Shown piece by piece: positions 3,713 through 28,941 of a DNA stretch of 64,000 nucleotides. The DNA is taken from positions 1 through 64,000 of IMG/VR virus record IMGVR_UViG_3300031963_000063. One strand, written 5' to 3'. Numbering within the stretch: the first letter of the stretch is position 1; each line of letters begins with the position of its first letter. Under the pieces are notes generated by a model. It did not search any database, was not told where the DNA came from, and was given only the letters and a program-made list of their open reading frames with translations. Both the position numbers and the translations under genes were made by a program. This DNA is from a virus.

Positions 3713-3741
3713 ATTATAACTCAGAGAGTTGTAGTGGTCAA
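3713..3741 (-). promoter_or_regulatory. Sigma70-type (early) promoter for tRNA-Leu
   Basis: TTGACC-17 nt-TATAAT, 12 nt upstream of the tRNA 5' end. Confidence 0.85.
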
Positions 3742-4726: not shown

Positions 4727-4755
4727 ATTATAGGGGGTCTTGGTCCTGGTGTCAA
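4727..4755 (-). promoter_or_regulatory. Consensus sigma70 early promoter
   Basis: TTGACA-17 nt-TATAAT. Confidence 0.9.
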
Positions 4756-10313: not shown

Positions 10314-11599
10314 TACTTGCTTTTATTTGTATATAGACCGTAAGTGTCACGAACTAGTGTCATTGATGTAAAAGATCTTAAAGGATCAAAATGATGACAC
10401 AAATTGACAATCAAATATTTTCCACTGTTGACCGGATCACCAACTCCCTGAGTTTTCTTTCCCTGTGACACAATCTCAAAGTCACATTGAATTGTATTAC
10501 CTGCTCTCAGATTTGGATTGCATGGAACTTGAACTTGAATGATCTGAGTGAATAGCAGATTATATCTCATTGTTGACTTTGCTTGCCATTCCTTTGGATC
10601 ATTATTTGGATCGTCTTTTATTTTAGAACTCAGAACTCCAATGTCTTTAATATGAAAATGAGTTCTTGTATAAGAATCTAATTGTGGAACAGATAGATTT
10701 TTACCTAATGATTTTTCAAGACCATTATCCGTTAACTTATAAATTCCCTCTTCATAACTAAAAGATTGAGGATCCCAAAAAATATTACGACTTTGATACA
10801 CTCCAGACTTAAGTGCCGTGATTAGATCTTCTCTTTTAATGTCTGACTTAAGTGCAATCTTAAAGTCATTTTCATCATTCTCCACACCAGATCTTAAAAC
10901 ATCTGTTCTATAATAAGTTTCAACTGGTGGTTGAGATACTAAGTCATCAATTGCTCTAAAATTAAATCCATCTCTGGTTTCATAGAAAAAATATCCAGGG
11001 TTCCCTCTTCCTGGTACAGATTTTGATGCTAGACTGCAAATGACATCAAACACATGACGAGTATTTCCAATGAATGAATATGAATTTCGAGTTGGTGTTT
11101 TAGTTGCAAGTTTTGTTTTCAGATAATCAGCAACTAATTTTTCTACAGTATTTGTGATATTACCCGAGTATGGTTTAAAAATTGCGGTCTCTTGATTTAG
11201 TACGGCAGATTTTGAAACCAAATTCATGACAATTGCTTCACGGTTTGATTCTTGATTTGGATTGATCTGCTTATCAAATACCAAAGGATTATTAGTAAAA
11301 TCAAGAGTTCCTAGTTTTGATCTGATTTTAAAGGATACATTTACATCACCATTCAGAGGAAGTGCAGAACTCAGTGTTCCAAATCTTGTTTGCTTATCAA
11401 AAGTTTTATCATAGGTAGTAGCACCACCAACATCCATTAAAGATAAAACTGCAGTAATATTTGGTGATAACAAACTCTCGTAGTAATCAAAACTTGTTAC
11501 TCTGGCACCATAAGGATCCTGACCAGTAATATCTACTCTCTTACCATTTTTTTGAATCTCAAAAAGTTCATATGCTGATGCCTGTGCTGCATTTGCCAT
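10313..11599 (-). CDS. Baseplate hub protein (gp27/late control D-like)
   Basis: YYESLLSPNITA; GYFFYETRDGFNFRAIDDL; VPCNPNLRAG; SGKYLIVNLCHHF...LVRDTYG. Confidence 0.75.
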   Translation of the reverse strand: MANAAQASAYELFEIQKNGKRVDITGQDPYGARVTSFDYYESLLSPNITAVLSLMDVGGATTYDKTFDKQTRFGTLSSALPLNGDVNVSFKIRSKLGTLDFTNNPLVFDKQINPNQESNREAIVMNLVSKSAVLNQETAIFKPYSGNITNTVEKLVADYLKTKLATKTPTRNSYSFIGNTRHVFDVICSLASKSVPGRGNPGYFFYETRDGFNFRAIDDLVSQPPVETYYRTDVLRSGVENDENDFKIALKSDIKREDLITALKSGVYQSRNIFWDPQSFSYEEGIYKLTDNGLEKSLGKNLSVPQLDSYTRTHFHIKDIGVLSSKIKDDPNNDPKEWQAKSTMRYNLLFTQIIQVQVPCNPNLRAGNTIQCDFEIVSQGKKTQGVGDPVNSGKYLIVNLCHHFDPLRSFTSMTLVRDTYGLYTNKSK

Positions 11600-28387: not shown

Positions 28388-28583
28388 CGGATCCTCCTAA
28401 TTTTTTATCATCACAAATAACTTGTGGAAATGTAGAACCTTCACCAAATTCAGAATAAAATTCTTCTTTAGTAAAGTGTTCATTAAGATTATATACCACA
28501 AAGCTACTTCCTGTCAATTCCAATACTTGCTTAACTTTATAGCAATATGGACAATCTTCTTTTGAATAGACTGTAAAATTCAT
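28341..28583 (-). CDS. nrdC: Glutaredoxin
   Basis: CPYC active site; TFPQV; LGG. Confidence 0.92.
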   Translation of the reverse strand: MNFTVYSKEDCPYCYKVKQVLELTGSSFVVYNLNEHFTKEEFYSEFGEGSTFPQVICDDKKLGGSVDTIKFLKEQQIIKQ

Positions 28584-28616
28584 AATTTTTTGACGACTTA
28601 TATTAATTTATAAGAG

Positions 28617-28713
28617 AAAAAAGGAGGGTTTAAACCCTCCTACTAACCACCAACTCACCTCTCCCACCACAGAGAGGGTCTTCATTCCCAAAGATACAAG
28701 GATGTTGAAGACT
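28617..28713 (-). ncRNA. Standalone ~95-nt small RNA with two hairpins and an intrinsic terminator
   Basis: Directly downstream of a consensus sigma70 promoter, no credible ORF; stems GTCTTCA/TGAAGAC and CCTCTCT/GGAGAGG; terminator AGGAGGG-TTTAAA-CCCTCCT plus T-run. Confidence 0.75.
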
Positions 28714-28718
28714 TGATT

Positions 28719-28747
28719 ATTATAAAGGGTTTTATTGTGGTTGTCAA
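28719..28747 (-). promoter_or_regulatory. Consensus sigma70 promoter of the sRNA
   Basis: TTGACA-17 nt-TATAAT. Confidence 0.9.
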
Positions 28748-28941
28748 CCCTCTTCCGAAGATTCGGGAGTAATATCAGGCACTGGATGAGTGATAGTTAT
28801 TTCTATTTTATGTTCTGGTCCATGCTCTTCTAACATTTGTGTCACTTGTTCGATTGTATAACCAGTATCATTTGCTGGGTCTGCAGTCAAATGATAAACA
28901 TGCATCAAAGGCATGGTAAGTGTTTCAGTTCTTGTTGCCAT
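28744..28941 (-). CDS. Small acidic hypothetical protein ending the glyco operon
   Basis: ORF track; 1-nt spacing after the GT gene. Confidence 0.65.
   Translation of the reverse strand: MATRTETLTMPLMHVYHLTADPANDTGYTIEQVTQMLEEHGPEHKIEITITHPVPDITPESSEEG

Follow-up and report, generated by a model that had tools for sequence, protein, structure and literature searches.

A conserved small RNA gene with exposed GUGGU motifs, probably trans-acting, in freshwater T4-like cyanophages

Why does a viral genome carry a perfect sigma-70-type promoter and an intrinsic terminator around a short stretch of DNA that holds no credible protein-coding gene? We sought to answer this question for a locus within a window of 64,000 nucleotides, which is the whole stretch of DNA that was analysed and corresponds to the first 64 kb of a viral contig from IMG/VR that is 85.5 kb long (estimated completeness approximately 44%). 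The contig was found to encode both psbA and psbD. Its psbA was 92-94% identical to psbA of freshwater Cyanobium and Synechococcus genomes, and its glutaredoxin was 86% identical to the glutaredoxin of Synechococcus phage S-SRM01, a freshwater isolate of the Kyanoviridae. Based on the photosystem genes and these identities, the contig was assigned to a freshwater T4-like cyanophage. The locus lies at the border between a variable island of fibre and glycosyltransferase genes and the core genes. It is flanked by a 65-codon open reading frame (ORF) at the end of the glycosyltransferase block and by an 80-codon gene for an NrdC-type glutaredoxin (ATG at 28583). A sequence-only reading had proposed an orphan non-coding RNA with its own promoter and terminator at this position, and the proposal was borne out by the conservation of the unit, the covariation of its helices, its variable neighbours and the lack of a conserved ORF.

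The promoter, both hairpins, the linker and the terminator were all located on the minus strand where that reading had placed them. The -35 hexamer TTGACA (28742-28747) overlaps the TGA stop codon of the upstream 65-codon ORF and is separated by a 17-nt spacer from the -10 hexamer TATAAT (28719-28724), with 12 of 12 positions matching the consensus. Across both strands of the 64 kb, three perfect consensus promoters with 16-18-nt spacing were seen, compared to approximately 0.1 expected from a base-composition estimate. The RNA would start at or next to G28712, six bases past the -10 hexamer, and would have a length of approximately 95 nt (28712 to about 28617). Its first element is hairpin 1 (28678-28712), comprising 35 nt, in which an outer stem of 7 bp and an inner stem of 4 bp carry the 9-nt apical loop UGUAUCUUU (28698-28690). 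This is directly abutted by the 20-nt hairpin 2 (28658-28677), which has a 7-bp stem and the loop GUGGUG (28670-28665). The following 16-nt linker UGAGUUGGUGGUUAGU (28642-28657) was unpaired in both the minimum-free-energy (MFE) and the centroid folds and contains a second GUGGU motif, as GGUGGU at 28651-28646. The unit is closed by the intrinsic terminator (28617-28641), with an 8-bp stem that includes five G-C pairs (28641-28622), a 4-nt loop and a run of five U residues. The MFE fold from RNAfold consisted of exactly these three hairpins (-36.7 kcal/mol; z = -3.0), and none of 200 shuffled sequences folded as well.

It was noted that the sole ORF within the RNA comprises 25 codons from an ATG at 28685. 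This ATG was absent from 14 of the 71 distinct variants described below, and in others the frame was shifted by 2-nt indels, with differing ORF lengths. The AUG is paired inside the hairpin-1 stem and has no spaced ribosome-binding site. A small protein was rejected as the product because the 25-aa ORF is not conserved, in agreement with the original statement that no credible ORF is present.

We then examined the distribution of the unit among related viruses. From IMG/VR, 80 glutaredoxin loci were fetched, of which approximately 45 kept the element, and a degenerate pattern of hairpin 1 plus GGTGGT identified at least 117 IMG/VR contigs with the unit. All loci were pooled to give 71 distinct variants. 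Homology among the relatives begins at the -35 hexamer, and every variant (71/71) was found to carry TTGAC[A/T/G] and, after a spacer of 16-18 nt, a TATAAT-like hexamer whose end lies 6-7 nt before hairpin 1. The -10 hexamer was TATAAT in 68 variants and TATACT, TATGAT or TATTGT in the remaining three. A covariance model (CM) returned one significant match per complete genome, namely in two genomes of 211 and 213 kb (G001 and G002) and in S-SRM01. The copy in S-SRM01 (NC_070963) is located at 10977-11080 (80.9 bits), within a 227-nt stretch without annotation that separates gp012 from gp013 (thioredoxin domain), before the glutaredoxin gene. A divergent member was encountered on a 104-kb contig that also carries psbA. 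The model detected no copy in the marine phages S-SKS1 and S-T4.

Searches outside this group were negative within their respective scopes. An exact pattern for hairpin 1 that also required GGTGGT downstream gave no match in 185,579 species genomes, and the covariance model gave no match in five Cyanobium and Synechococcus genomes; on these two results, a host origin of the RNA was rejected. BLASTN against 50,697 phage records returned nothing useful. No Rfam 15 family matched positions 28612-28750 even at E values up to 10, while across the whole window three tRNAs alone reached the gathering score. Membership in a known Rfam family was consequently rejected, and the novelty suggested earlier stands with respect to Rfam. 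The paper describing S-SRM01 makes no mention of promoters or small RNAs. A 2023 catalogue lists 8,495 structured-RNA candidates from IMG/VR (PMC10690425), and this motif may already be among them.

Conservation of the secondary structure was assessed in two alignments. In a MAFFT alignment of 28 sequences, 97.2% of cells were paired, compared to 51-73% for slid partners, and seven pairs had changed on both sides. In a CM alignment of 65 distinct sequences, 99.1% of cells were paired and double changes were found in 16 of the 26 pairs, with none of 500 shuffles reaching any of five measures; a CM-fitted alignment leans towards the model structure, and the MAFFT result is the more conservative of the two. 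Compensatory changes were recorded in all four helices. Within hairpin 1, double changes in the CM alignment affected pairs 6 and 7 of the outer stem and pair 3 of the inner stem, while five of the seven pairs of the hairpin-2 stem and all eight terminator pairs had changed on both sides. The loop sequence of the terminator was found to drift freely, with a mean pair probability of 0.90 for its stem across the 65 sequences, and all helices were near 0.9 in individual ensembles. The check for covariation across relatives therefore returned a conserved structure. The decisive argument against chance is that all 71 variants keep the promoter and that the helices covary.

The relationship of the unit to its neighbours was also examined. 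The next gene after the RNA was glutaredoxin in 58 of the 71 variants. In the other variants, the RNA is followed by a glycosyltransferase-like gene, by small ORFs that have a TTGACA promoter of their own, by an inserted ORF of 66 codons, or by a different gene. In the window, the sequence TATAAAT (28606-28612, minus strand) lies outside the RNA and marks the boundary of the unit, 4 nt past the U-run and approximately 23 nt before the glutaredoxin ATG at 28583. TATAAAT is the T4 late promoter motif, as used for cyanomyoviruses (PMC3037559). It was found close behind the U-run in 63 of the 71 variants, with a spacing of approximately 4 nt in most, and it was also kept in glutaredoxin loci without the RNA. 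Among the minus-strand TATAAAT[AT] sites in G000, 8 of 13 lie 11-47 nt before an ORF start. The promoter motif belonging to the next gene indicates that the unit is insulated from that gene, and in combination with the variable neighbours it points to an independent sRNA gene and not a leader.

While stems changed in a compensatory manner, certain unpaired bases hardly changed at all. The hairpin-1 loop Y-G-U-R-W-C-U-U-U (UGUAWCUUU) was almost invariant, and its G, C, U and U were invariant in the 65 distinct sequences. The hairpin-2 loop GUGGUG was kept in 62-63 of the 65 sequences and the linker core UUGGUGGU in 60-63, with the extended form UUGGUGGU-A-UA also almost invariant. Two copies of GUGGU were present in 65 of the 71 variants. 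The divergent members L098, L149 and L137 keep hairpin 1 and a GGUGGUG loop, and their second motif is found in the terminator loop instead of the linker (L149 and L137) or is degraded to GUGGA (L098). The relocation in L149 and L137 indicates that the motif, and not its position, is what is kept. In a short 82-nt subtype (L074 and L086), the hairpin-2 stem has been lost and one motif is retained. The exposed UGGUG or GUGGU motifs noted in the sequence-only reading are hence real and rank as the most conserved unpaired bases of the RNA. The hairpin-1 loop and the two GUGGU motifs presumably form its working surface.

On this evidence, we are confident that freshwater T4-like cyanophages do carry a conserved sRNA gene at this locus, in a single copy, and it is likely that the RNA acts in trans. 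Our view of the mode of action is more tentative, with base pairing put forward as a possibility and protein capture as a somewhat doubtful one. The best overall explanation, to which we assign a probability of roughly 0.5, is an independent early sRNA gene whose product acts in trans by pairing with C/A-rich host RNAs. We thus favour a pairing RNA, with a protein sponge as a close second and a role at tRNA ends as a low-probability third.

Transcription probably begins as soon as infection does and would use the host polymerase in its unmodified form. The host RNA polymerase with its primary sigma factor would read the consensus promoter, presumably from the first minutes of infection, and the constitutive intrinsic terminator would stop transcription to give an RNA of hairpin 1, hairpin 2, linker and terminator hairpin. 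It is the agreement of the promoter with the sigma-70 consensus that suggests an early RNA and a strongly expressed or abundant one. The exposed bases may then act in trans on a partner that is invariant across the hosts, which would be freshwater Cyanobium and Synechococcus. In the preferred form of the mechanism, the G/U-rich motifs would pair with C/A-rich (ACCAC) stretches of host transcripts, two copies of the motif could provide avidity or serve several targets, and the outcome would be a changed translation or stability of host RNAs during takeover.

We compared this proposal with small RNAs of related kinds. DicF and IsrK are phage-encoded RNAs that act in trans and have a promoter and an intrinsic terminator of their own. 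Further examples are Misc_4 of phiR1-37, IpeX of PA-2 and the psbA antisense RNA of cyanophage S-PM2 (PMC10690425). Similar to these, the present unit is self-contained from promoter to terminator, spans approximately 100 nt, lacks an ORF and combines hairpins with a conserved single strand beside the terminator. However, it shares no sequence or model similarity with any of the five (Rfam 15), and it does not run antisense to any gene beside it. We class it as a new family of an established kind, the phage-encoded small RNAs. The GcvB-type sRNAs of enterobacteria use G/U-rich seeds to pair with C/A-rich mRNA elements. The cyanophage RNA resembles GcvB in having an unpaired, conserved G/U-rich region followed by a terminator and in carrying the motif more than once, whereas its sequence and host are unrelated and no Hfq or Sm-like chaperone gene was detected in four phage genomes.

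Searches for a pairing partner were conducted in both the phage and the putative hosts. Neither the 85-kb phage contig nor a set of 156 start regions yielded anything beyond the background tail when scanned for duplexes. The best match among the start regions was a 73-codon ORF outside the window (G000 81603-81824, minus strand), in which codons 2-8 face the apical part of hairpin 1 in a duplex of 13 bp with one bulge (-14.4 kcal/mol with a 14-nt loop query; -18.7 kcal/mol with a 17-nt apical query). This site was kept in the close relative G001 and absent from the orthologues in G002 and S-SRM01, and the ORF was rejected as a target on account of being lineage-specific. A host-like rRNA operon contained no extended complement, and its sole match was the 8-nt AAAGUUAC in 23S rRNA against the A-variant of loop 1.

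In a BLAST search of 61 Cyanobium genomes, a 15-mer, GTGGTGGGAGAGGTG, recurred. The 15-mer was located at nine sites, and in five of these (e.g., L317-L320 and L324) it is antisense to the gatA codons SPTSPTT of the amidase motif, where the gatA mRNA contains a perfect 15-nt complement of the hairpin-2 loop and 3' arm in the window subtype. Equally good matches run in sense orientation (VVGEV) through three other genes, and the complementarity is not kept by RNA subtypes with other hairpin-2 arms. The gatA match was attributed to composition or chance for both of these reasons, namely the sense matches elsewhere and the dependence on a variable arm. It was the only tRNA-related match seen. The density of ACCACC discriminated between host and phage by only approximately 3.5-fold in crude ORF sets. 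Several considerations weigh against the pairing reading: no target was found in the phage contig, the rRNA operon or the Cyanobium BLAST search, the four phage genomes showed no chaperone gene of the Hfq or Sm type, and a repeated motif of 5-6 nt fits recognition by a protein as well as it fits a seed.

A role for the motif in DNA was separately considered. The sequence GNTGGTGG occurs in 54 copies on the minus strand compared to 4 on the plus strand. A Chi-like DNA site was rejected, as the strand bias reflects GGT glycine codons of the fibre genes.

The strongest rival to pairing is a protein sponge or decoy, in which the exposed GUGGU motifs, and perhaps the hairpin-1 loop, would titrate a host RNA-binding protein, a nuclease, a defence factor or a phage protein. 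We regard this as unlikely, though it leads the alternatives. The motif is short, repeated and found in varied contexts, including the loop, the linker and, in L149 and L137, the terminator loop, and this pattern together with the failure to find an RNA target fits capture by a protein. A decoy is also conceivable because GGUGGU is common in the phage's own mRNAs, occurring 1.3 times per kb as Gly-Gly codons. The sponge reading is purely inferential, however, with no candidate protein or co-occurring gene, and the persistence of a short variant with a single motif (L074 and L086) speaks against it. An established system of this type is CsrB/RsmZ, which titrates CsrA through repeated GGA motifs. 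As in CsrB/RsmZ, a short motif recurs in loops and unpaired stretches and is retained even where its position shifts; unlike in CsrB/RsmZ, there are only two copies and the motif is GUGGU, not GGA. To our knowledge, cyanobacteria lack CsrA.

A second rival concerns the 3' ends of tRNAs. In T-box antiterminators and in RNase P RNA, tRNA 3' ends are bound by pairing with a UGGN bulge and a GGU loop, respectively. In a comparable manner, UGGU in the hairpin-2 loop and linker could pair with the ACCA-3' of uncharged tRNAs or with a tmRNA end, and thereby sense such ends or protect them, for instance from tRNA-directed defence enzymes. UGG(N) is present in all copies of the motif, including the GUGGA of L098, and the motifs are predicted to be unpaired in the hairpin-2 loop and linker, where UGGN would be able to pair with NCCA-3'. 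The linker heptamer GGUGGUA is also what we take to be the core of the T-box consensus. Nonetheless, four base pairs are too weak without the extra tRNA contacts of T-boxes, the conserved G on the 5' side of UGGU has no partner past a 3' end, Rfam gave no T-box match, and no acceptor stem of a phage tRNA extends the pairing. Capture of tRNA ends is accordingly rated improbable. More improbable still is its most specific form, a free-standing, trans-acting counterpart of the 'UGG' device of T-boxes and RNase P that grips the ACCA-3' of host or phage tRNAs or of tmRNA. We know of no phage RNA of this tRNA-end-gripping kind. If it were true, the RNA would serve as a shield or decoy against host defence enzymes directed at tRNA ends, or would report the charging state early in infection.

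The comparison with T-boxes also bears on a reading as a T-box-like riboswitch, against which the results speak. The RNA resembles the T-box (RF00230) in exposing UGGU next to a terminator. It differs in being 95 nt long, in lacking Stem I and its specifier, in having no antiterminator switch and no Rfam match, and in preceding variable downstream genes. By inspection, L098 and L149 keep no antiterminator alternative, and the terminator, which dominates the predicted ensemble of the 65 sequences, appears constitutive.

A constitutive terminator likewise weighs on the idea of a cis-acting leader or attenuator of glutaredoxin, such as one that senses tryptophan through a leader peptide. Such a peptide would be encoded by the 25-codon ORF, in which two UGG codons stand in tandem and which extends through the terminator. 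The RNA is located directly upstream of the glutaredoxin gene in 58 of 71 variants, tandem Trp codons are available in two alternative frames, and inspection of the window subtype suggests that an alternative duplex could form between the pyrimidine arm of hairpin 2 and the purine arm of the terminator. However, this alternative pairing is impossible in L098 and L149, again by inspection, and the predicted pair probability of the terminator is approximately 0.9 in the 65 sequences, as expected for a constitutive element. The missing ATG in 14 of 71 variants, the frames that differ between subtypes, the AUG buried in hairpin 1 without a spaced ribosome-binding site, and the variable downstream genes with their own promoter are equally difficult to reconcile with a leader, which we consider highly improbable.

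It was also considered whether the transcript could be a by-product of a regulatory DNA cassette, with an early promoter and a terminator that insulate or shuffle modules. The PeSL (promoter-early stem-loop) cassettes of T4-type phages occur in many dispersed copies flanking early genes. Similar to PeSL, the unit joins a sigma-70-type early promoter to stem-loops at module borders of a T4-like genome, and its border position, the onset of homology at the -35 hexamer and a partial second copy in L088 are in line with a cassette. In contrast to PeSL, it is single-copy within each genome and not repeated, and its order is that of promoter, a covarying RNA of approximately 95 nt and terminator, with conserved loops. 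A promoter and terminator alone need neither the covariation of hairpins 1 and 2 nor the invariance of their loops. The cassette explanation is as hard to sustain as the leader.

Least credible is an RNA anti-CRISPR in which hairpin 1 mimics a host CRISPR repeat and traps Cas6 or effector subunits: hairpin 1 is indeed 35 nt long, its ends are complementary and 8 nt follow a small hairpin inside it, a length and layout that we take to resemble Cas6-type repeats with a 3' tail AUGAAGAC that presumably recalls AUUGAAAC-type handles, but when 401 Cyanobiaceae genomes were searched for its core with up to two mismatches, 13 held only single matches, below the count for the reversed control, and no arrays were seen, and the 'handle' varies together with compensatory changes in the 5' arm, which shows that pairing and not sequence is selected. 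A hairpin-1-like 27-mer was common to four Prochlorococcus-sized genomes. As a link to CRISPR repeats it was set aside as coincidence, since in the three that were translated it is antisense to ATP synthase beta-type codons (QRYKELQD).

The favoured reading of a trans-acting sRNA gene is of interest for several reasons. Few phage small RNAs are known and almost none are understood in cyanophages, which control globally and regionally important picocyanobacteria. The RNA occurs widely among freshwater T4-like cyanophages, and a phage and host that are both in culture, S-SRM01 and Synechococcus sp. KCZYC6, make it directly testable. Should it act on a host RNA or protein on which takeover or defence depends, the RNA would represent a new RNA-based layer in the interaction between cyanophages and their hosts. 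It merits an Rfam family of its own and annotation in S-SRM01.

Several additional features were observed in the course of this analysis. A second, partial copy of the unit was found in L088 (12585-12649, minus strand), comprising the promoter, hairpin 1 and the 5' half of hairpin 2. It is fused to a Gly-rich coding sequence and lies approximately 11 kb away from the full copy, which is on the same contig of 15.7 kb. Recombination may have left it as a scar, or two strains may have been joined in the assembly. In L149 (6150-6370, minus strand) and L137, another TTGACA promoter directly follows the sRNA terminator and precedes a conserved leader of approximately 190 nt before the next gene; this leader may be a second RNA element.

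Other promoters were noted within the window. A second perfect sigma-70 promoter, TTGACA-18-TATAAT, is located within the glutaredoxin coding sequence (28488-28517, minus strand), and TTGAC[ATG]-18-TATAAT/TATACT was kept in 51 of 52 distinct glutaredoxin genes from related contigs. Because of this retention, the internal promoter is probably real, early and used for downstream genes. Two further perfect or near-perfect consensus promoters were found at 3713-3741 and 4727-4755 (both minus strand). One of them ends approximately 12 nt before tRNA-Leu(taa), and the other lies upstream of the region containing tRNA-Ile(tat). The strongest promoters in the window thus seem to serve genes for stable RNAs.
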